Shown piece after piece: positions 6,256 to 59,239 of a DNA stretch of 64,000 nucleotides (the first letter of the stretch is position 1; each line of letters opens with the position of its first letter). The position numbers and the translations under genes were made by a program. The DNA lies in contig JBHPFX010000005.1 in the NCBI GenBank assembly GCA_042570925.1, positions 4,969-68,968 of the forward strand. Reading direction: 5' to 3'. Below the pieces are notes generated by a model, which saw only the letters and a list, made by a program, of their open reading frames with translations, did no database searches and was not told the origin of the DNA. This stretch comes from Patescibacteria group bacterium (GTDB lineage Bacteria; Patescibacteriota; Patescibacteriia; UBA10025).

Positions 6256-6264
6256 TGTGGATAA
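6256..6264 (+). other. Perfect DnaA-box 9-mer (TGTGGATAA = complement of TTATCCACA)
   Basis: Intergenic, 9 nt beyond the stop codon of the minus-strand CAP gene. Confidence 0.4.
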
Positions 6265-14151: not shown

Positions 14152-17100
14152 TTATTGAGACTGCTCTTTCCGGGTTACCCAGAGGGCTCCACCGACGAAG
14201 AGGACAACGAATATTCCGAATGAGAGGAATGCCAGTTCAGTCAATCCACCACCTTTAACTGGGAGGTCTTCTGCGGCAAGCACCTGCACTTCTCTTACCT
14301 CAAGTGGAACTGTGGTCGTTACATTATCGTGATTATCAGCCCATGTTACAGCGAGATTGTCATACGTTCCTGCCTTGATCGTTTCATCAATCACGACGTC
14401 GTATGAAATGTTTCTGCTCTCACCTGGGAGTAAGTCGCCGAGTTCCCACGTCTTGGTTACCGTACCATTTGGGAAGCTGAATCCTGCTGGGAGGAGATCC
14501 TGCAGCATGACGTTCTCTGCCTCTCCATCGCCAATGTTTTCTACAACAACGGTGTAAGTAACAGTACTGCCGGGATTTGCGAATTGTGCATCGACGGTCT
14601 TCACGATTGTGAGTATTGGAGCTTTCTCGCCGAATACGATTGGTACAATCACTTCTACAGACACGTCATCTGAAACATCAGGATAATTGTCTGAAGAGGC
14701 GACTGCGAGGTTTTCATAGAGGCCAGCGTCTACATCCTCACCAACTACGACATCGTAGGTTGTAGAAATGCTGCTGTCGATTGCGAGATCGCCGAGTGAG
14801 TAAGACTTCGTTCCTTCACCAGTGTCAGCGAAAGTGAATCCTGTTGGAAGTGTGTCAGTGAGAACGACATTGTACGCAGTGTCATTGCCTGAATTGGTGA
14901 TGATCACTGTGTAACTAATAGTCTGACCTGGATTGACCGTTGTTTCACTCACCGTCTTGACGATTGAAAGTACTGGACCTGCCTGAATAAGCACTGATGC
15001 TGATGCACTCACTGATGGATCTGTCTCGTCAGAGTCGAGCGTACCGGTGTTTGTAATGATTGTCCCGTCAGAAAGAGGGGAGTCGGAGGCTACAGTCATC
15101 GTGACCTGACCAGTGTCTCCAGGAACATGATTGCCAAGTTCCCAGGTGATCAGATTCGTTTGGGCGTCATATACACCGTTGTCACTCGCTGATACGAATG
15201 ACGAATTGTCAGGAATCGGGTCAACGAGTATAAGGTTTGTTATTGGGCTGGTTCCGCCAACGCTCCATGTCATTGTGAAGGTAACTTCATCACCAGGATT
15301 GATAACTGGTTTGTCAGCTTCCTTAACAAGGCCGATTGCAGGTTGTGATTCAACGATTGTCGTGGTTGAGTCATCGTCACATTTCTGAGTTGGTACTTCG
15401 GGAGCATCTGCGGCAACTACGAGCTCACCTTCACCACAGATTTCTGCGGTGTTATCTATTACTGTTCCGTTATAGAGTGGTGTGTTTACCTGAACGATGA
15501 AAGAAACAGTTCCATTCGCGTCAGGTGTGACAGTGTTAAGATTCCAGGTAACTACGCCTGCTGTTTCTGTACCGCCGTTATCTGCTGAGACGAATGTAGT
15601 ATTAGCAGGAAGCGGATCAGAGATTACGACGTTAGATACATCTGTGTTTCCAGTAACACTCCAGTCGAGTGTGTAGGTAAGTTCGTTTCCAGCTTGAACT
15701 GTTGCATCAGCTGTTTTGTCAATTGATACATCGAATTCGTTGAGTTGGTTCATGAAGTCTTTTCTGACGTCTGAGCCAGGAGTAATGACAATGCCTGTAT
15801 GAGCTCCAGATGCTGGGTTAATTGCTGTCCACCCGTATTTAAGTGTTTCAGCGACACCGTATGTTCCAGCAAAGAGACTGTCGAATTCGTAGTATCCATC
15901 TTCCCATTCTCCAGTTCCTGTGTATACACAGTTGACGCCAAAGTCTTGGGAGATGCTGTCTCCTAAGTCGATTGATCCGCCTGAAAGACAGATTTCCCAA
16001 TCATTAAGAGGCGCTTCGAGCTGATCCATCTTATAACCTCGGATAATACCTGGAATGTCATCATTCGTGATCGTGCAGGTCTTTGTTTCACCGACATTGA
16101 TAGTACCGGAACAATCAGCACCTAAGGTTTTGGCGTAGCCGAAGTATGAATCTTCATCAACGCTGTATGAGCCCTGGTCGAGTGTAACTGTTACACCAGG
16201 AGTTTCTGCACCAGCGAATGATGCATTTGAAACATTGGTTCCAGTTACATTCATCGTGAAGTCAGAAGCGACTGCTTGACCACCATCGTCGTTAATGACG
16301 TGTTTGATGATTGTTAATTCCGGTGCAATGTCATCGTTCGTGATCTCACAAACCTTATTCTCACCCGGTTGCAGGGTAATCTCTCCGTTTGCTGCACAGT
16401 CACCGCTCCATACCGAAGCAGCGTATCCAGGATCTTCAGTTTCAGTTGCTGTTACGAGGGTGTTTGCACTTACTGTGTTTGCTACACCGCTGGTGACAGG
16501 TGATCCATTGATGAACAGAGGGAAGTCAGAAACGACTTTCGTACCACCGTCATCATTAATTACGTGTTTAATGAGTTTAAGAGTTGGAGCCTTGTCATCA
16601 TTCGTGATCTCACAAACCTTGTTTTCACCCGGTTGCAGGGTAATCGTTCCGTTTGCTGCACAGTCACCGCTCCATACCGAAGCAGCGTATCCAGGATCTT
16701 CAGTTTCAGTTGCTGTTACGAGGGTGTTTGCACTTACTGTGTTTGCTACACCGCTGGTGACAGGTGATCCATTGATGAACAGAGGGAAGTCAGAAACGAC
16801 TTTCGTACCACCGTCATCATTAATTACGTGTTTTATCAGAGTAAGGGTTGGTGCAATGTCATCATTCGTGATCGTGCAGGTCTTTGTAACGCCGTTTTCT
16901 ACGACGACAGTGGATGTTGGTTGACCATCACAGATAACACTTGTTTGAGTATAGCCAGTTGGCGGTAAATCTTCAGATACTGTGTAGGTGCCGGTAACAA
17001 GAGAGTACTCTTTACCGGTTTCTGAACCTGCAGCAGGACTGTCGGCTACATCTACGCTATTAAGTTGTACATGGAGGGTGAAATCTGAAGCGACCGCATC

Positions 17101-20100
17101 ACCACCGTCATCATTAACAACGTCTTTAATTACTATAAGTTTTCCAGCGTCTCGAGTATTTTCTACATAACAAACATAAGGGGTGCAGGTATCCTGAGAA
17201 CCAATATTCAACTTAATCTGACCATTGTCCAAATAACAAGCTCCCCATGCGTTAGTTAATGAATACAAATTGTCATAGACTGAAGATTCATTAACGTCAT
17301 ACGGACCTGTGTGAGTAGGAAGGGTTACGTAATCGCCATCATGATATACGCCGGGGATACCGTTAATAGTAAAGTCCCAATCAGCATCTGTAGAAGGGCC
17401 TCCGCCAACAATGACTTTATCAAAAGTCACTCGGACAGTGTCCCGTACATTCGTAAATGTACACACGATATGCTGATTAGCGTACGTGGACTCGATATTG
17501 AATGAGGTGCCAAAGCCGCTTCCAATTTCTGTTTGCCCGTCATAACAAATCCATGAAGAAGTAAAGTCGTTTGAAGAATATACTGAAGTATCTTCAGTTA
17601 CTGCGTATGTAACATTGGTTAACAATGCTCTTTGTTCACCGCCAAGGATTCCTGATTCGCTGTCCAGACTCCATGACCAGTCACCTGGATTATATATCGG
17701 AGCTTGGTCAGGCAGTTCAACAAACTTATTCACAACGATCGTTCCAATATTTCGGTAGTTTATAAATGTCAGTTCATCAGAACCGTTACTTCCTACTTCA
17801 ACCATGGCTCCATTTGTTTCATCTGCATCGTTGTCGCCAAGGATTGTGTAGAGTGTGTAGTCCGGGTCAAGATCTTCTGAGAAGGTGTACTGACCTGGAT
17901 TGACCGTAAGCACCAGCTCGTTATTCTCAGAGAATGAGTAGGTAGTGCCATTAAGTGTGAACGTATGGTTGTCTGATACATCCTGCCCAAGATAATCCAT
18001 TACATCCTTATAGACAGTAATGGTTGCTTTCTTCTGTTTGTTAACGACATCAACCGTTTCTGATCCGCCGCTTGGTACGGTAACTTGAGACGGAGTAATT
18101 GAAACGAGATCATAATCTGGGTCAGGAGTTTCTGTTACCGTGTATGTTCCCGGCCAGACATTGAATGTTGCGTTGTTGCCTTCTGCAATTGCATCGGAGC
18201 TGTTGTAACCGTAATCACCGGTGACATTTGCTTCAAACTGATGCGTGTCAACAACCGGACCGCCGTCAGGATTTAGTACATCCTTAGTTACGGTAATGGT
18301 TGCTTCATGCTGTTTGTTAACAATATATACATGAGTTGTTTGATCTTTGGTTACTGTAGTATTACCACCATTAGTGATAGACACTAATGTATAGTCAGGA
18401 TCGATCAGTTCCTCTGTTATTACATAATTTCCGGTCGGTAAGTTATCATAGGTAACTGTCGTACTCTCAGTGATAGTTTCATTATTTGCACCATCGAGTT
18501 TCACTGTGAAACTTTGATTGTCCGTAACATCTGTAAATCCATCCGGAGCTACAACATCCTTGTGAACGACGATTGTTCCAATGTCGCGAACGTTAGTAAA
18601 CGTACATGTGATTGTGTAGTCACCCATGATCTCAAGGTCCGAAATAGTATCCCCGGAACCGCTGGCAACAACCTGTAATCCAGGACCGCCGCCGACAGTA
18701 CATTCGTAACCACCTGCAGTGTAACCAGCAGGGGACACTTCAGAGACATCATAGAATCCGGTCGGAATATTAAAGAAGTATACTTGTCCATCAGCACCGG
18801 TCGTATCGTCAGCAGTGTATTCGGTTCCAGAAACATGTACTGGTACATCCAATGGGGCACCAGATTCATCAACTTTGTTGACTATTAAGTCACCGGCTTG
18901 TCGAGTGTTATGGAAGTTACACTCTGATTGCTGAGATGAATTCACAACAACATTATTACATGTTGTTGAAACCTGCCAGTAATCAGGATTTGTACTTTCT
19001 GTAACTGTGTAGGAATTAGCAGATAAGTCGTTGAAGATGACGAAATCTTCGCCAGAGTTTGGTGTAAGTGTTCCAATACCATTGATGGTGAAACTCCACT
19101 CATCAGGAGTGGCAGTTCCGCTGTCAACATACTTGGTCACTTTAAGAGATCCATTGCACTCTGTTTCATAGTGACTGGAAACGATGTTTGAATCTATGCC
19201 ATCAGGAATTTCATTTGAATAAATGGTGCCGTAGTTTGTGATGTCTACATCTGCACATGGTTCAAGCGGGTCAACCATTACTTTGAAAGTGACAGTACCG
19301 GTTTCGCCAGGGCTGACAACATGACCATTCCAGCTTAAGAGCGAGCCGTTGAATCCATCAGGATTGGCTGTTCCGAATTTACTATACTCATATCCAAAGT
19401 GAATTCCTTCTCCATCAGTGTCACTAGCAACTGATTGCGTGTTGCTGCCGCTGACATACGTAGTGCCGGCAGGAATGTAGTCATCAATTCGTGCGCCGCC
19501 ACCGGTACAAACTGCCGTACCGTTATTTCCATAATGGAGCGTGTAGTGTATTCCCTGACCGCTGTCATTGGTAAAGGGGTCAGCAATTTTTTCAATCCAG
19601 AGATTACAGAATGGTACGTCTATGTAATCGCCGTAGACATTAGAAGCGGTAAAGTCTCCCTGAACAGGCCATTCGATGTATGGTTCTATGGTGACATCAA
19701 AAGTTTCAGAAACTGTAGCACCGGCATTGATAGTCTGTTGGGGCCAGGAGACAATTTCTGTTCCTGAGTTATATGAGCCAGAGTTAGAAATATTGAATGG
19801 GTCATTTGTGTACTCAACAATATCGCTGACATCGTCTTCGAAAATGAAACCCGGTGAAAAGATATTTCCAGCATTTGTTACTGAAAGAGTATAGCGCAGG
19901 GTGTCACCCGGTTTGACCGGCATTGAGACGGTGGTATATCCGGGGTTGGTTACATTTTCAACTGATTTATTTTTAATTAGTTCAACAAAAAATCCTTCTG
20001 AAGCCATCCAGTCTTTCTGAAGCGGATTGGTGTTTGAAGCTGAGGTGCTCGCGAATAGGGAGCTGTATGAACTGAAAGGAATTTCAGTTTTAGGAACTGC

Positions 20101-20787
20101 CAAGTCAAGCCAGAATTGAGTTCCAGTTGGAACAACTCGTGTATAGAAATTACTGTTATTATTTGCTTCAGCCTGCCACTCAGAAACTGTCGGATTATAA
20201 GTGAATAGACCTGGGTCATTTGGATAAACACCAAGGACACCCATGTACGTTGAGCCATTACCGCCATAAGCGTCTGATCCATTCATATCAACTACGTAGT
20301 CACTTGTTCCGTTACCATCTACATCAACGAGAACATCCCAGTGATAGCTGTTGTATAACGAACCTGCTTTTTGCTGAGGATTATCCCGCAGGCGAATTCT
20401 AAAATAAAGATAGTCAGTATCCTGCCCAGATTGGAGAGTTGGTTCGGATCCTGGGTTTTCACATGGCGGACCTTCAACTGCATTTGAGGCGAGGTCAACA
20501 TTTTGAGGGGTGACATTTGTTCCACCGTTAGAATCGTCGTTAATACCACAAACGCCGTCTTCCCAGTCAGTAACCACGTGGCCGTTTATTTCATAAGCGG
20601 TCCAGGCAATGGTCTTGCCGTCAAATACTGAGGGAGCAGCTGCTTCAGCCGCAGGAGGCTGAATAAAAATACCCACCATCGACATATTGAAGATAAAGGT
20701 GAGCATGGTAACAACATGAAGACTTTTTAGCATACGCTGTCTCCATGTTTTCTTCGGAAGTAAGTTGATTTTCATAGTATTTTTCAC
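14152..20787 (-). CDS. Giant surface protein (2211 aa) with many prealbumin/Cna-B-like and DUF11-like repeats and an LPVKG-type anchor
   Basis: Signal peptide. Repeated 'T(I/V)TV.K.V...DG' beta-sandwich modules, tandem 88-aa repeats, and four DUF11-like repeats. The C-terminus reads 'DLPVKGGG' followed by a TM helix and 'RKEQSQ'. Confidence 0.85.
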   Translation of the reverse strand: MKNTMKINLLPKKTWRQRMLKSLHVVTMLTFIFNMSMVGIFIQPPAAEAAAPSVFDGKTIAWTAYEINGHVVTDWEDGVCGINDDSNGGTNVTPQNVDLASNAVEGPPCENPGSEPTLQSGQDTDYLYFRIRLRDNPQQKAGSLYNSYHWDVLVDVDGNGTSDYVVDMNGSDAYGGNGSTYMGVLGVYPNDPGLFTYNPTVSEWQAEANNNSNFYTRVVPTGTQFWLDLAVPKTEIPFSSYSSLFASTSASNTNPLQKDWMASEGFFVELIKNKSVENVTNPGYTTVSMPVKPGDTLRYTLSVTNAGNIFSPGFIFEDDVSDIVEYTNDPFNISNSGSYNSGTEIVSWPQQTINAGATVSETFDVTIEPYIEWPVQGDFTASNVYGDYIDVPFCNLWIEKIADPFTNDSGQGIHYTLHYGNNGTAVCTGGGARIDDYIPAGTTYVSGSNTQSVASDTDGEGIHFGYEYSKFGTANPDGFNGSLLSWNGHVVSPGETGTVTFKVMVDPLEPCADVDITNYGTIYSNEIPDGIDSNIVSSHYETECNGSLKVTKYVDSGTATPDEWSFTINGIGTLTPNSGEDFVIFNDLSANSYTVTESTNPDYWQVSTTCNNVVVNSSQQSECNFHNTRQAGDLIVNKVDESGAPLDVPVHVSGTEYTADDTTGADGQVYFFNIPTGFYDVSEVSPAGYTAGGYECTVGGGPGLQVVASGSGDTISDLEIMGDYTITCTFTNVRDIGTIVVHKDVVAPDGFTDVTDNQSFTVKLDGANNETITESTTVTYDNLPTGNYVITEELIDPDYTLVSITNGGNTTVTKDQTTHVYIVNKQHEATITVTKDVLNPDGGPVVDTHQFEANVTGDYGYNSSDAIAEGNNATFNVWPGTYTVTETPDPDYDLVSITPSQVTVPSGGSETVDVVNKQKKATITVYKDVMDYLGQDVSDNHTFTLNGTTYSFSENNELVLTVNPGQYTFSEDLDPDYTLYTILGDNDADETNGAMVEVGSNGSDELTFINYRNIGTIVVNKFVELPDQAPIYNPGDWSWSLDSESGILGGEQRALLTNVTYAVTEDTSVYSSNDFTSSWICYDGQTEIGSGFGTSFNIESTYANQHIVCTFTNVRDTVRVTFDKVIVGGGPSTDADWDFTINGIPGVYHDGDYVTLPTHTGPYDVNESSVYDNLYSLTNAWGACYLDNGQIKLNIGSQDTCTPYVCYVENTRDAGKLIVIKDVVNDDGGDAVASDFTLHVQLNSVDVADSPAAGSETGKEYSLVTGTYTVSEDLPPTGYTQTSVICDGQPTSTVVVENGVTKTCTITNDDIAPTLTLIKHVINDDGGTKVVSDFPLFINGSPVTSGVANTVSANTLVTATETEDPGYAASVWSGDCAANGTITLQPGENKVCEITNDDKAPTLKLIKHVINDDGGTKVVSDFPLFINGSPVTSGVANTVSANTLVTATETEDPGYAASVWSGDCAANGEITLQPGENKVCEITNDDIAPELTIIKHVINDDGGQAVASDFTMNVTGTNVSNASFAGAETPGVTVTLDQGSYSVDEDSYFGYAKTLGADCSGTINVGETKTCTITNDDIPGIIRGYKMDQLEAPLNDWEICLSGGSIDLGDSISQDFGVNCVYTGTGEWEDGYYEFDSLFAGTYGVAETLKYGWTAINPASGAHTGIVITPGSDVRKDFMNQLNEFDVSIDKTADATVQAGNELTYTLDWSVTGNTDVSNVVISDPLPANTTFVSADNGGTETAGVVTWNLNTVTPDANGTVSFIVQVNTPLYNGTVIDNTAEICGEGELVVAADAPEVPTQKCDDDSTTTIVESQPAIGLVKEADKPVINPGDEVTFTMTWSVGGTSPITNLILVDPIPDNSSFVSASDNGVYDAQTNLITWELGNHVPGDTGQVTMTVASDSPLSDGTIITNTGTLDSDETDPSVSASASVLIQAGPVLSIVKTVSETTVNPGQTISYTVIITNSGNDTAYNVVLTDTLPTGFTFADTGEGTKSYSLGDLAIDSSISTTYDVVVGEDVDAGLYENLAVASSDNYPDVSDDVSVEVIVPIVFGEKAPILTIVKTVDAQFANPGSTVTYTVVVENIGDGEAENVMLQDLLPAGFSFPNGTVTKTWELGDLLPGESRNISYDVVIDETIKAGTYDNLAVTWADNHDNVTTTVPLEVREVQVLAAEDLPVKGGGLTELAFLSFGIFVVLFVGGALWVTRKEQSQ
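16331..16858 (-). repeat. Two near-identical in-frame tandem 264-bp (88-aa) repeats inside the 2211-aa gene, followed by diverged copies
   Basis: 'tcatc(g/a)ttcgtgatctcacaaacctt' recurs at 16331 and 16595. The two copies differ at only a handful of positions. Both encode 'APTL(T/K)LIKHVINDDGGTKVVSDFPLFINGSPVTSG...'. Confidence 0.9.
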
Positions 20788-21341: not shown

Positions 21342-21350
21342 TGTGGATAA
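21342..21350 (+). other. Perfect DnaA-box 9-mer
   Basis: Intergenic, 12 nt beyond the stop codon of the last pilus-operon gene. Confidence 0.4.
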
Positions 21351-27914: not shown

Positions 27915-27923
27915 TGTGGATAA
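27915..27923 (+). other. Perfect DnaA-box 9-mer in the pilB/pcm divergent spacer
   Basis: TTATACACA (27780..27788), which fits TTATNCACA, lies in the same 335-bp spacer in the opposite orientation. Confidence 0.4.
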
Positions 27924-38568: not shown

Positions 38569-38988
38569 ATGTATCTCTATATTGATACAAGATCATTTGA
38601 GGCTATACGGTTTCGTGCGGTAGATTCAGCAGGAAATATGATAAAAGAAAAAATTTTTCAGTTGCCTTATAACTCTCGAGGCAAGCTTTTAAAATCAATT
38701 GAATCACTTATCATTACTACTCACAAAAAGATAAGTGATATTAAAGGAATAATGATTGAAAAGGGGCCTGGTGCGTTTTCAGCACTCCGTATGGGAATAG
38801 TAACGGCAAATAGTCTGAGTTACGCACTATCAATTTCTGCAATAGGGGTACAGAGTTCTAAAGATAACCTGCAAAAAGTTATAGTACGATCAATTAATCA
38901 ACTGCGCACGATGAAACAACCCAAACTTGTCGTTCCGGTATACGGAAGTGAGCCGAATATCACCAAACCACGAAAATTTACTATCTAG
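38569..38988 (+). CDS. tsaB: TsaB (YeaZ)-like tRNA t6A protein, short form
   Basis: 'YLYIDT' start and 'GPGAFSALRMGIVTANSLSYAL', which is the GPGSFTGLRIG motif. I chose the ATG at 38569. Confidence 0.6.
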   Translation: MYLYIDTRSFEAIRFRAVDSAGNMIKEKIFQLPYNSRGKLLKSIESLIITTHKKISDIKGIMIEKGPGAFSALRMGIVTANSLSYALSISAIGVQSSKDNLQKVIVRSINQLRTMKQPKLVVPVYGSEPNITKPRKFTI

Positions 38989-40132
38989 CGATACCGAGCC
39001 CGTAACGAGATTGAAGAGATTGAAAAGACCTCCTGATACCTTTGAGCCTGGTAAACGTATGAGAGAATGATATGAGATTCTCTCTTTTTGTATGTTTAAT
39101 ATTTAGTGCGTGAACACAAACGGATCGAATGGGCAGACCGAAGTAGTGCATATCTAAGAGGAGTCTGTGCGCGCGATCCACAATCTCTTTTTGAGATAAT
39201 AGGGGGGTAGTAAATGTTTTCTGATGTTGTAGAGATTTACCATCATGTAAGATAAGACGAACGGCGACAGTTTTCGCTTGTCGCTGTGAAGACTCAATAA
39301 TTGAACCGACAAGCAATGAAAGTTTTCTTACAGAATCATGGACGGTTACGTACTCATTATCATCGGATAATTTTTTTGTTCTAGAAATTGATCGTTGAGC
39401 ATGGGGGATATCAACGTCACGAGAGTCAAGACCGTTTGCGAGACGTACGTATGTCATACCGGCTTTTCCAAATAGCTCACTGCTTATTTCAGGAGATAGT
39501 TGAGCAAGATCACCAATAGTTTTTATACCAATCTCGTGGAGGACATTACACGTTCGGGATCCAATCCCGGGAACCATCTGCACATCAATGGGCTGAAGAA
39601 ATGAAGCTTCTTTGCCCCATGGCACCACCACTAATCCATTTGGCTTTTTTATTCGAGCGGCAACTTGCGCGGCGATTTTATTCGACGCCACTCCAATGCT
39701 TGAAGTGAGCTCGAGTTCTTTGAGTATCGCCTCCTTAATTTTTTGAGCTGCATATTCGGGTGAGATCCATAGATATTCATATCCAGTGAGATCGATAAAA
39801 GCTTCATCAAGACTTACCGCTTCAACTTTTTCAGAAAAACGGTGAAGAATTTTATAAAACTCACGGGAGAAATCTTCAATTCTTTTTACATCTCCCGAGA
39901 TGACTGATGCTTGGGGAGCTTTTTGCATTGCATGAGCCAGGGGCATACTTGGCTGTATTCCCAAGACACGCGCTTGTTGATTGGAGCTAGCGACAACATT
40001 CTTATGAGCATGGCTGGCAACAATAACCGGAGTGCCCCGCAAAGACGGTCGCATAACTTCTTCAACTGATGCAATAAATCGATCAAGACTTACATATAGA
40101 ATTGTTCGTATAGGGGAGTGACGCTTTTTCAT
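38981..40132 (-). CDS. dinB: DNA polymerase IV (Y-family)
   Basis: 'ILYVSLDRFIASVEE', 'SLDEAFIDLTG', 'IGVASNKIAAQVA', 'PIDVQMVPGIG'. Confidence 0.9.
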   Translation of the reverse strand: MKKRHSPIRTILYVSLDRFIASVEEVMRPSLRGTPVIVASHAHKNVVASSNQQARVLGIQPSMPLAHAMQKAPQASVISGDVKRIEDFSREFYKILHRFSEKVEAVSLDEAFIDLTGYEYLWISPEYAAQKIKEAILKELELTSSIGVASNKIAAQVAARIKKPNGLVVVPWGKEASFLQPIDVQMVPGIGSRTCNVLHEIGIKTIGDLAQLSPEISSELFGKAGMTYVRLANGLDSRDVDIPHAQRSISRTKKLSDDNEYVTVHDSVRKLSLLVGSIIESSQRQAKTVAVRLILHDGKSLQHQKTFTTPLLSQKEIVDRAHRLLLDMHYFGLPIRSVCVHALNIKHTKRENLISFSHTFTRLKGIRRSFQSLQSRYGLGIAR

Positions 40133-40143
40133 ACGTGTTTATT

Positions 40144-40172
40144 TATATACCGAATAATAACCGAAGATTGAA
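40144..40172 (-). promoter_or_regulatory. dinB promoter TTCAAT-N17-TATATA with operator in the spacer
   Basis: The -10 lies only about 11 nt from the ATG, giving a near-leaderless mRNA. The spacer is c-TTCGG-TTATTA-TTCGG. Confidence 0.5.
40150..40165 (-). promoter_or_regulatory. Candidate LexA operator (direct repeat TTCGG-N6-TTCGG), dinB copy
   Basis: The 20-mer TACCGAATAA(T)AACCGAAG is shared with the lexA promoter with one mismatch. Confidence 0.5.
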
Positions 40173-40176
40173 AGTA

Positions 40177-40204
40177 CAAATAAAGAAGGCGATATAAAGC
40201 CTTC
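40177..40204 (-). terminator. Terminator between lexA and dinB
   Basis: The stem gaaggc/gccttc is followed by a U-rich run on the minus strand. Confidence 0.5.
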
Positions 40205-40211
40205 CTAAATG

Positions 40212-40835
40212 CTATTTCTTATATTTTCTCAATATACCAATTACTTTACCCTGTATGACGACATTTTTAACCATACGAGATTTGTATTTTGAATTGGCGG
40301 GCTTGAGTCGAATGAGATTCTTTTGCTTATAAAATTTCTTCAACGTTGCTGATCCGTCATCAAGTAATGCTACAACCATATCACCATCTCGTGCAAAATC
40401 AGTTTTCTCGACAATAATCAAATCACCATCAGCGATCATGCTTTCTACCATTGAATCTCCTTTTACCTTCAGTAGATAGGCATTTTTATTTCCTATTAAC
40501 TCCTTGGGTATTGGTATATGTTCATCAACTGTTTCAATTGCTTCTATGGGTTCACCAGCTGTAATCGTGCCAACCAATGGTAAAAGTATAGAAGCAGCGG
40601 TTGCAGTAGCTTCAACATCTTCTTGTACTATAGAAATACCTCGCGCTGCACTGGCGTCCCGCTTAATAAAACCCCGTTTTTCGAGAAACTGAATATGCTC
40701 ATGGACCGTAGCCAATGAGGAAAGGTTAAACTTCTTCGCAATTTCTGTAAGGGTGGGCGCGTACCCATTATCTTTTATGTAATCTTTGAGAAAGGCGAGT
40801 ATCTTTTGTTTTTGTTTTGGGAGTACAGGGGCCAT
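40212..40835 (-). CDS. lexA: LexA repressor
   Basis: wHTH 'PTLTEIAKKFNLSSLATVHEHIQFLEKRGFI', Ala-Gly cleavage site 'ITAGEP', and Ser/Lys dyad 'KGDSM' ... 'ATLKKF'. Confidence 0.95.
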   Translation of the reverse strand: MAPVLPKQKQKILAFLKDYIKDNGYAPTLTEIAKKFNLSSLATVHEHIQFLEKRGFIKRDASAARGISIVQEDVEATATAASILLPLVGTITAGEPIEAIETVDEHIPIPKELIGNKNAYLLKVKGDSMVESMIADGDLIIVEKTDFARDGDMVVALLDDGSATLKKFYKQKNLIRLKPANSKYKSRMVKNVVIQGKVIGILRKYKK

Positions 40836-40930
40836 ATGTTGGTTTGTTAGCTTATAGATTATAGCTTATAGCTAGTGGTGTAGATTCCCGTTGTTGGTAA
40901 TCATACGCTATACGCTATCAGCTATTAACC

Positions 40931-40959
40931 AGACTACCGAATAAAAACCGAAGTGTCAA
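40931..40959 (-). promoter_or_regulatory. lexA distal promoter TTGACA-N17-TAGTCT with operator in the spacer
   Basis: Perfect -35 at 40954..40959. The spacer is c-TTCGG-TTTTTA-TTCGG. Confidence 0.45.
40937..40952 (-). promoter_or_regulatory. Candidate LexA operator (direct repeat TTCGG-N6-TTCGG), lexA copy
   Basis: See the dinB copy. I found this arrangement only at these two places in the window. Confidence 0.5.
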
Positions 40960-40969
40960 GACCCCCCCT

Positions 40970-40978
40970 TGTGGATAA
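40970..40978 (+). other. Perfect DnaA-box 9-mer
   Basis: It lies between the hairpin after the gene at 41016..41825 and the lexA -35 box. Confidence 0.4.
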
Positions 40979-41015
40979 GTTAGAGGCGGGTAATCCATCA
41001 GGATTATCCCGCCTT

Positions 41016-41825
41016 TCATTCACTTTGTTCTATTTCATATCTCAGCTCTTCGATTCTCCTCTCCCAAAGCTCGATGTCCAAATGATGCCACTCCTTACAT
41101 GCAAATGGTTTACTTGAGAGGAGAGCAGATTGCGAGCCTCCTAGACTCGCGAAAGAATCACCGGTATTCCAAGCGCTTTGGCCATGTCTGAACGATATCT
41201 CTGCCGCACGATACCAGTATTTAACCCACGACATGTGAAGGAAGTACAAGTGAATCGAATCAGCGAACTGTTCATAACGCAGGACTCCATCAAGATAGTG
41301 AAGGTCTTTTTTTGCCGTTGCCAAGAATTCAGGCATCACGGCGGCGCTTTCTAGTGCGGCGGTTAAACAAAGGAATCTGATTACAATGTTCACCGGTTGC
41401 TGATCGACTGCATCAGTGATTCTCTGAAATGCTTTGCGTACTTCGTCGTACGGAGATGCAGCAAGTCCAATCTTGCTCCAACCGAATTTCCAGCCACTCG
41501 AGATTTTGTTACGATCTCTCAAATGCAGCAGCTCCTGCGATCCACGATACGCCTCAACAAGATTTTGTCCGTCACAGTTCGGTTCGCACTTCTTGAAGTA
41601 CTTCTTCGCTTTCTTTGTCATGTCTTCGTCGTGATTCGAGAAAGAGATGTTATGGGCAAGGATGCCCATGAGGAAATAGTCCGATGAGCCGGACTGCTCG
41701 AGCGAATCGAGCACGTTCCGCGCATCATCGTGAAAAAGAAAATACGCAGAAGGTTCACAGGCGTAAGCACCTTGGGATGCAATCGTGATTAACACGATTG
41801 CGAGAATCATCAATCGCGTCTTCAC
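41016..41825 (-). CDS. Secreted hypothetical protein (GC-richer, SD-led, GTG start)
   Basis: Signal peptide 'MKTRLMILAIVLITIASQGAYA'. AAGGAGG lies 6 nt before the GTG start. Confidence 0.6.
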   Translation of the reverse strand: MKTRLMILAIVLITIASQGAYACEPSAYFLFHDDARNVLDSLEQSGSSDYFLMGILAHNISFSNHDEDMTKKAKKYFKKCEPNCDGQNLVEAYRGSQELLHLRDRNKISSGWKFGWSKIGLAASPYDEVRKAFQRITDAVDQQPVNIVIRFLCLTAALESAAVMPEFLATAKKDLHYLDGVLRYEQFADSIHLYFLHMSWVKYWYRAAEISFRHGQSAWNTGDSFASLGGSQSALLSSKPFACKEWHHLDIELWERRIEELRYEIEQSE

Positions 41826-42535: not shown

Positions 42536-42592
42536 GTTAAATCCCGAGTTAACCGAGGGATTCCATCATTTTAAAATGATATTGACCAAATT

Positions 42593-42697
42593 GTGGAAAA
42601 TGTGGTGTGGTTGACGTTTCCTCATTTGTGGTGTAAAATGGAATGGAAGGGTAGAAAGTGGATAAATGTGGGGATAAGTCATACGGAAAGTGGATAA
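42593..42697 (+). promoter_or_regulatory. Array of GTGG-core direct repeats (candidate MraZ boxes)
   Basis: GTGG occurs at 42593, 42602, 42607 and 42628. 'aaaGTGGATAA' occurs at 42658 and 42690, and 'GTGGGGATAA' at 42668. Confidence 0.5.
42611..42639 (+). promoter_or_regulatory. mraZ/dcw promoter TTGACG-N17-TAAAAT
   Basis: Read directly from the sequence, about 105 nt upstream of mraZ. Confidence 0.55.
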
Positions 42698-42745: not shown

Positions 42746-43177
42746 ATGTTTATAGGTGAATATCATCATTCATTAGATGCAAAAGGCCGTTTAGCCGTGC
42801 CAAAGAAGTTTCGAAGCTCATTACAAAAGGGAGCTGTCGTAACACGAGGACTGGATAACTGCCTTTTTGTGTATACCGCAAGCGAATGGAAACAACTCGC
42901 GGATAAAATTGCCAAGCTCCCGATTGCAAAAGCAAATACCCGGGCATTTGCACGTATGATGCTGGCTGGAGCTATGCCGCTTGAGATTGACCGGCAGGGA
43001 AGAGTGATGCTGCCTGATTACTTACGAAAATACGCTTCATTAAAGAAGCAGATTATTGTTACCGGATTATATAACCGGCTTGAACTCTGGGACAAGGTGA
43101 AATGGGAGCGATATCGCACCGGAACTGAAACAAAGAGCACTGATATCGCTGAAGCACTTGGTGACCTTGGTGTATAA
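42746..43177 (+). CDS. mraZ: Transcriptional regulator MraZ
   Basis: 'MFIGEYHHSLDAKGRLAVPKKFR' and a second SpoVT/AbrB-like half 'EIDRQGRVMLP'. Confidence 0.95.
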   Translation: MFIGEYHHSLDAKGRLAVPKKFRSSLQKGAVVTRGLDNCLFVYTASEWKQLADKIAKLPIAKANTRAFARMMLAGAMPLEIDRQGRVMLPDYLRKYASLKKQIIVTGLYNRLELWDKVKWERYRTGTETKSTDIAEALGDLGV

Positions 43178-58540: not shown

Positions 58541-59239
58541 ATGAACTTCTGGTCTAAGTATCATGAGGTGTATGACAAATTTCTTTCCATTTCACCAACT
58601 TATCAACTGTTAGCTTCACAAGTAATTAAAGCAGCCAGTATTAAAAAAAATGACAAAGTTCTTGATGCTGGTTGTGGGACCGGCTATATAACGAAAAAAG
58701 TGGCTGAAACCACTCCAAATGTAACTAGTGTTGATAATTCCAGTGCAGCTTTGGATTTTGTTCGGCGAACAGTTCCTGTTGCAAAAGTTTTTAAACAAGA
58801 TCTATCTAAGCAACTTAATCTTGAAAGTGATTATTTCGATTGCGTAATTTGCGTAAACGCCCTATACACTCTCAATAAAGGTGTTCTAGATAATACATTT
58901 AGAGAATTCTCGCGCATATTAAAGAATGGAGGCTTATTAATTATTACTGATCCAGGAGTTGGCTTCAGTAATATGAAGATATTTTATTCTGATATGAAGA
59001 TAATTTTTAATCAAACAGGTTTTCGACATTTACTAGGAATTCTTAGAATGAATTTAGTATTATATCTCAAATTGATGATTTATAATATAATCATTGATCT
59101 AAAAGATGCTCAGGGTAAATATACCTTTTTTACGGAGAATAAATATATAGAGCTCTTAAATAAAAATAATTTTAGTATACTTTTAATGAAGAAATCTTAT
59201 TCTGATCAGAATATTTTTGCAATAGCAAAAAATAAATGA
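58541..59239 (+). CDS. Class I SAM-dependent methyltransferase
   Basis: Motif I '[12 protein letters not shown]', 'VICVNALY' and '[12 protein letters not shown]'. It starts 5 nt after the acyltransferase. Confidence 0.85.

Follow-up and report, generated by a model that had tools for sequence, protein, structure and literature searches.

Probable direct-repeat LexA operators in the lexA and dinB promoters of an uncultured Patescibacteria genome

Two Promoter Elements With a Shared Direct Repeat

Two copies of a direct-repeat element lie in the promoters of lexA and dinB in the window, by which is meant the whole 64-kb stretch of DNA that was analyzed, and both are very probably Patescibacteria-specific LexA operators (SOS boxes) that repress these two genes. 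The principal features, in window coordinates, are as follows.

40212..40835, minus strand: lexA, 207 aa, wHTH and S24 self-cleaving domain (Pfam LexA_DNA_bind and Peptidase_S24)
38981..40132, minus strand: dinB, 383-aa Y-family (Pol IV-like) translesion polymerase (Pfam IMS, IMS_C, IMS_HHH_1)
40937..40952 (extended repeat 40935-40953), minus strand: probable LexA box 1, TTCGGTTTTTATTCGG, lexA promoter spacer; pattern match, position-weight matrix (PWM) 30.4 bits (lexA side), orthologous position invariant
40150..40165 (extended repeat 40148-40166), minus strand: probable LexA box 2, TTCGGTTATTATTCGG, dinB promoter spacer; pattern match, PWM 27.0 bits (dinB side), invariant block in orthologues

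In a pattern search, CCGAANNNNNNCCGAA (CCGAA-N6-CCGAA) has exactly two matches in the 64 kb, at 40150-40165 and 40937-40952, compared with a mean of 0.11 matches in the shuffled window, and none of 100 shuffles reaches two. The extended 19-mers (40148-40166 and 40935-40953) share 95% identity, with a difference at one position. The coordinates and the one-base difference given in a preliminary description of this DNA were therefore correct, and the uniqueness that it had judged by eye also stands, as a PWM built from 142 boxes of relatives finds no third site in the window; the next hit scores 15.3 bits and lies inside ORF 58541-59239, with a shuffle maximum of 16.7. When TTCGGT-N5-TTCGGT is searched with up to two mismatches, a single extra match appears (41567-41583, within ORF 41016-41825), five being expected by chance. 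The box is thus carried by only two of roughly 57 window genes.

The LexA encoded here is accession MFC1687428.1 by exact-sequence look-up and derives from an uncultured MAG; its nearest named relatives belong to Candidatus Kerfeldbacteria. The Ala93-Gly94 cleavage site and the Ser/Lys dyad (Ser128 and Lys166) are invariant in 18 orthologs. The closest solved LexA structure is PDB entry 3k2z, which we take to be Thermotoga maritima LexA. Crude signature regexes for recA, uvrA, uvrB, ruvB, recN, dnaA, and others found none of these genes in the 64-kb window, which is a weak negative.

Promoters Around the Boxes

On the minus strand, the lexA promoter consists of TTGACA (40959-40954), a 17-nt spacer made up of C and TTCGGTTTTTATTCGG (40953-40937), and TAGTCT (40936-40931). 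The dinB promoter consists of TTCAAT (40172-40167), a 17-nt spacer made up of C and TTCGGTTATTATTCGG (40166-40150), and TATATA (40149-40144). The placement of the element in the 17-nt spacer between -35 and -10, as first described, holds for both boxes.

40954..40959, minus strand: lexA -35, TTGACA; read from sequence, consensus tTgAc directly 5' of the box in relatives
40931..40936, minus strand: lexA -10-like TAGTCT; 3/6 match, TATACT in relatives
40167..40172, minus strand: dinB -35-like TTCAAT, weak; 3/6 match, TTTAC-type hexamers in relatives
40144..40149, minus strand: dinB -10, TATATA; read from sequence, ATG 11 nt downstream
40183..40206, minus strand: terminator-like hairpin AGGAAGGC...GCCTTCTT with T-rich tail, lying after lexA and ahead of the dinB promoter; terminator scan

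At its threshold, a generic sigma-70 scan called neither of the box promoters because TTCAAT and TAGTCT match only 3/6 positions, so that these promoters are assigned on the strength of the cross-species consensus. The scan calls another candidate immediately after the lexA box, TTAATA-17-TATGAT (40928-40900); were this the true lexA promoter, its -35 would have the box on its upstream side. The hairpin at 40183-40206 suggests that lexA and dinB are two separate transcription units. Since the dinB start codon follows the -10 by 11 nt, the dinB mRNA would be leaderless or nearly so, its leader probably comprising a few nucleotides at most. In several relatives, the dinB start codon lies 8-15 nt past the box. 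The lexA leader of about 95 nt (40840-40925, minus strand) contains 7-nt tandem repeats, namely two copies of TAGCGTA and the series TAGCTAT-AAGCTAT-AATCTAT-AAGCTAA. These period-7 repeats were rejected as a conserved element, as the threshold was reached in only 7 of 80 leaders (the window and 79 relatives).

Conservation of the Box in Relatives

The comparative set comprised 80 lexA loci (614 kb) from species-representative Patescibacteria genomes, with LexA proteins 52-80% identical to that of the window. TTCGG-N6-TTCGG occurs 142 times in these loci vs 0.8 expected, whereas the TTCGG pairs counted at each other spacer (2-5 and 7-11) number 1-7. Of the 80 loci, 79 have a box upstream of lexA that is oriented as lexA is, and the remaining locus (L037) begins inside lexA. 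A second box stands just after lexA in 37 loci, ahead of Y-family polymerase genes that encode full-length DinB or shortened Y-family derivatives, and in 20 loci an oppositely oriented box faces a divergent gene. The consensus of the box is cTTCGGTTTTT(C/A)TTCGGt, with two TTCGG half-sites that point the same way at a distance of 11 bp, and the consensus context tTgAcc-TTCGGTTTTT(C/A)TTCGG-tTAt corresponds to -35, box, and -10. Both hexamers match at four or more of six positions at 58 of the 142 boxes, compared with 1.7% of random positions.

An enumeration of dyads that presupposed no motif ranked TTCG-N7-TTCG first, in 47 of 79 lexA upstream regions vs 0 of 75 controls. Palindromic dyads were not enriched upstream of lexA, the best reaching 6/79, and the canonical Gram-positive palindrome CGAAC-N4-GTTCG has no match with up to two mismatches in 40133-41015. 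These results bear on three points raised with the preliminary description. The motif was expected in the lexA and dinB promoters of close relatives and is found there; a canonical palindrome that LexA would bind instead is seen in neither promoter; and the motif is not scattered, as the sites in relatives concentrate around lexA and are strongly enriched for -35/-10 context. The direct-repeat box is thus remarkably stable across 80 species in which LexA has diverged to about 52% identity.

A metagenome-wide scan for TTCGGTTTTTMTTCGG returned at least 120 loci. Among the matches listed, most are chance occurrences in coding regions of unrelated high-GC organisms, and about eight have promoter context, before LexA or small lexA-adjacent genes.

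A Previously Listed LexA Ortholog

At the species level, the window's closest relative is represented by locus L001, whose LexA is KKW01361.1 of Parcubacteria group bacterium GW2011_GWA2_48_9 by exact-sequence look-up. It is 80% identical to the window LexA over 206 aa, with a nearly identical DNA-binding domain; in the recognition-helix stretch SSLATVHEH(I/L)QFLEKRGFIKRD, I vs L is the sole difference between the two proteins. The genome encoding KKW01361.1 carries cTTCGGTTTTTCTTCGG in its lexA and dinB promoters, at the same promoter position as the window boxes. Its lexA promoter reads TTGACA-c-TTCGGTTTTTCTTCGG-c-TATACT, and its dinB promoter reads c-TTCGGTTTTTCTTCGG-TATGAA.

KKW01361.1 is listed among reference experimentally-validated LexA proteins in Supplementary Table S2 of a 2021 NAR paper, which gives PMID 28618189 as the source. 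The source study (Sanchez-Osuna, Barbe & Erill 2017, Environ Microbiol 19:3465) is cited among cases of direct-repeat LexA motifs. From the promoters of this same organism, we infer that the published motif is TTCGG-N6-TTCGG. As the LexA ortholog is listed as validated and L001 has the same promoter boxes, the direct-repeat LexA system is, going by this listing and citation, already published; its recovery here is a rediscovery, and the window boxes are orthologous instances. To the extent that the 2017 motif is represented by these sources, there is no known difference between it and the window boxes, the window being another, uncharacterized MAG. A literature search for the motif string with LexA returned only primer sequences.

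The LexA Operator Reading and Its Alternatives

A LexA operator with 11-bp periodic half-sites, as proposed in the preliminary description, is supported by the conservation across 80 species, the spacer specificity, and the listed ortholog. The word "candidate" used there is too modest with regard to function, and the novelty of the element was overrated.

The two TTCGG half-sites, spaced by about one helical turn, would be displayed on the same face of the DNA. Because the box fills the -35/-10 spacer, bound LexA would block RNA polymerase at the lexA and dinB promoters, and LexA would thereby repress its own gene and the translesion polymerase. Upon DNA damage, RecA-stimulated self-cleavage of LexA at the Ala-Gly site by the Ser/Lys dyad would release both promoters. 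A two-fold symmetric LexA dimer would have to read a head-to-tail repeat, presumably by way of a flexible linker between its DNA-binding and dimerization domains.

It is improbable that the repeat is instead the operator of another transcription factor that controls lexA and dinB in this lineage. Such a factor is conceivable in that the binding protein is assigned here by sequence context, and the conserved 9-mer TTATCCACA nearby gives lexA promoters more than one candidate protein-binding site. However, a box at the lexA promoter in 79 of 80 loci is the classic signature of autoregulation, and the box also precedes Y-family polymerase genes. Repeat, dyad, and alignment comparisons found no other motif common to the lexA and dinB promoters, and the orthologous LexA is listed as validated, with a source paper that is cited for a direct-repeat motif.

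Still less probable is that the shared 19-mer is no repressor site and reflects either a promoter cassette that was recently duplicated or an element intrinsic to promoters, such as a spacer preferred by the housekeeping or an alternative sigma factor. The orientation of the box is always fixed, and it always lies between -35-like and -10-like hexamers, as would be expected of a promoter element. The duplicated cassette was rejected because the identity stops at the box: the flanking hexamers of the two promoters differ (TTGACA vs TTCAAT, and TAGTCT vs TATATA). When orthologous lexA and dinB promoters are aligned, the box forms an invariant block from which the flanks diverge, and across the 80 species it is near-invariant whereas the -35 and -10 hexamers vary, which argues against a promoter element. 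Nor is it a general promoter feature, given its presence at so few of the window genes, and two half-sites with an 11-bp spacing stand too near each other to act as the -35 and -10 of an alternative sigma factor. Chance similarity of two AT-rich intergenic regions, for which one could cite only that the window contains few sites, can be practically dismissed in view of the shuffles, the excess in relatives, and the strict spacer specificity.

Under the LexA operator reading, the window would hold a minimal SOS unit of lexA and dinB with its two operators labelled in an uncultured Patescibacteria genome, which adds little beyond annotation. That a regulatory site was inferred from raw sequence makes it a good positive control for the first reading of this DNA.

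Comparison With Other LexA Boxes

The direct repeat GTTC-N7-GTTC is quoted for the LexA of Alphaproteobacteria. The Alphaproteobacteria/Acidobacterium box is likewise non-palindromic with an 11-bp period, and its TTC core is in the same register. The half-site here differs from it, being (C/A)TTCGG(T) and not GTTC: among the 142 boxes, the base preceding TTC is C in 67, T in 39, A in 23, and G in only 13, and the GG after TTC is invariant. In Balneolaeota, an independently evolved direct-repeat LexA motif, TTACACATATTTTWTACATA, controls lexA and translesion polymerases. The element described here would likewise be a direct-repeat LexA operator, but the half-site sequences are unrelated and the phylum is different.

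The Gram-positive (Cheo) box, with the consensus CGAAC-N4-GTTCG, has inverted half-sites separated by 4 bp, unlike the box described here; the window promoters contain no such site, and no palindromic dyad is enriched in relatives. We assume a resemblance between its half-site GTTCG and the cTTCGG found here, and the recognition helix SSLATVHEH presumably resembles that of Gram-positive (B. subtilis) LexA.

A Conserved 9-mer at lexA Promoters

The dyad search of lexA upstream regions also brought up TTATCCACA, which we take to be identical to the DnaA-box consensus. Its copies in the window are listed below.

40970..40978, minus strand: TTATCCACA, beginning 26 nt ahead of the lexA box; second conserved lexA-promoter element
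2415-2423, 6256-6264, 21342-21350, and 27915-27923, minus strand: other TTATCCACA copies

In the 80 loci, TTATCCACA has 81 copies vs roughly seven expected, most of which, in one orientation or the other, begin 20-26 nt ahead of the box. In 65 of the 80 loci, a copy and a box are no more than 200 bp apart, and the density there is 64-fold higher than in the rest of the loci. The 9-mer accompanies boxes on the lexA side (43 of 85) and at divergent genes (12 of 20), compared with 0 of 37 on the dinB side, and it is present in six of eight independent metagenome contigs with genuine boxes among the matches listed. The window contains five perfect copies vs 0.75 expected, all on the minus strand and all between ORFs according to the ORF map.

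It is possible, though rather doubtful, that lexA promoters are composite, combining the LexA direct repeat with TTATCCACA, such that replication-initiator status and damage would be integrated if DnaA binds the 9-mer. A literature search for "DnaA box" together with "lexA promoter" found no description of such an arrangement. Alternatively, TTATCCACA could be a MraZ-type site or the site of another global regulator, since degenerate copies cluster ahead of mraZ, and pilus and surface-protein genes are preceded by perfect ones.

Two of the other window copies precede genes for a T2SSE/PilB-like ATPase and a He_PIG Ig-domain protein, and by coordinates another is upstream of the giant surface-protein ORF 14152-20787. 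The stretch 42592-42697, read on the minus strand, contains four copies of the 9-mer with one mismatch each (TTATCCACT, TTATCCCCA, TTATCCACT, and TTTTCCACA) in one orientation. This cluster is situated just upstream of mraZ (42746-43177, plus strand), with GTGG cores at helically phased distances of about 10, 22, and 65 bp. It could be an operator for MraZ built from GTGG-type direct repeats, or else a group of DnaA boxes. In five relatives (L066, L067, L070, L072, and L076), two tandem LexA boxes 38-39 bp apart (~3910 and ~3949) lie upstream of lexA, and TTATCCACA is positioned exactly between them.

Further Layouts in Relatives

Along with the 9-mer at lexA promoters, the antisense LexA-box promoters and truncated polymerase genes of relatives may merit a separate look. 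The loci concerned, together with those of a small membrane protein, are as follows.

L006:3130-4000; also L008, L013, L015, L017, L018, L023, L027, L042, L044, L049, and L059: antisense layout
L009:923-1666, L033:4705-5211, L021:4700-5314, and similar: shortened Y-family genes with a box
L043, L047, L048, L052-L056, L058, and L060-L062; metagenome L083 and L144: ~111-aa protein

In 12 species, a lexA-oriented box is found upstream of lexA at a distance of 850-1040 bp. Between this distant box and lexA there is a single substantial gene, which encodes a conserved, membrane-protease-like HExxH membrane protein of ~265 aa on the opposite strand, and a LexA-controlled transcript from the box promoter would therefore run antisense through the HExxH gene.

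In many relatives, the box that follows lexA precedes genes for proteins of ~250 aa with only the IMS N-terminal part or of ~170-205 aa with only the thumb (IMS_HHH_1). These shortened Y-family genes may be polymerase genes that are split or in decay, or may encode new small SOS proteins.

In about 12 species, a predicted membrane protein of ~111 aa (MATSLLQLTLAITPA...PWEKEKRPSERAE) is encoded between the box and lexA. It has no significant Pfam match, and its position suggests that its gene is apparently the first of a LexA-controlled operon.

Divergent boxes face the gene for a conserved 82-aa protein (MEVQKVNEPIRVFVDF...) at L014:2405-2650(-), L021:2577-2822(-), and L131. The gene faced in L035 encodes a dTDP-4-dehydrorhamnose 3,5-epimerase, whose N-terminus is nearly identical to that of the L045 product, and the one in L077 encodes RuvB. 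Judging from these boxes, the genes for the 82-aa protein, the epimerase, and RuvB are candidate additional members of the regulon.
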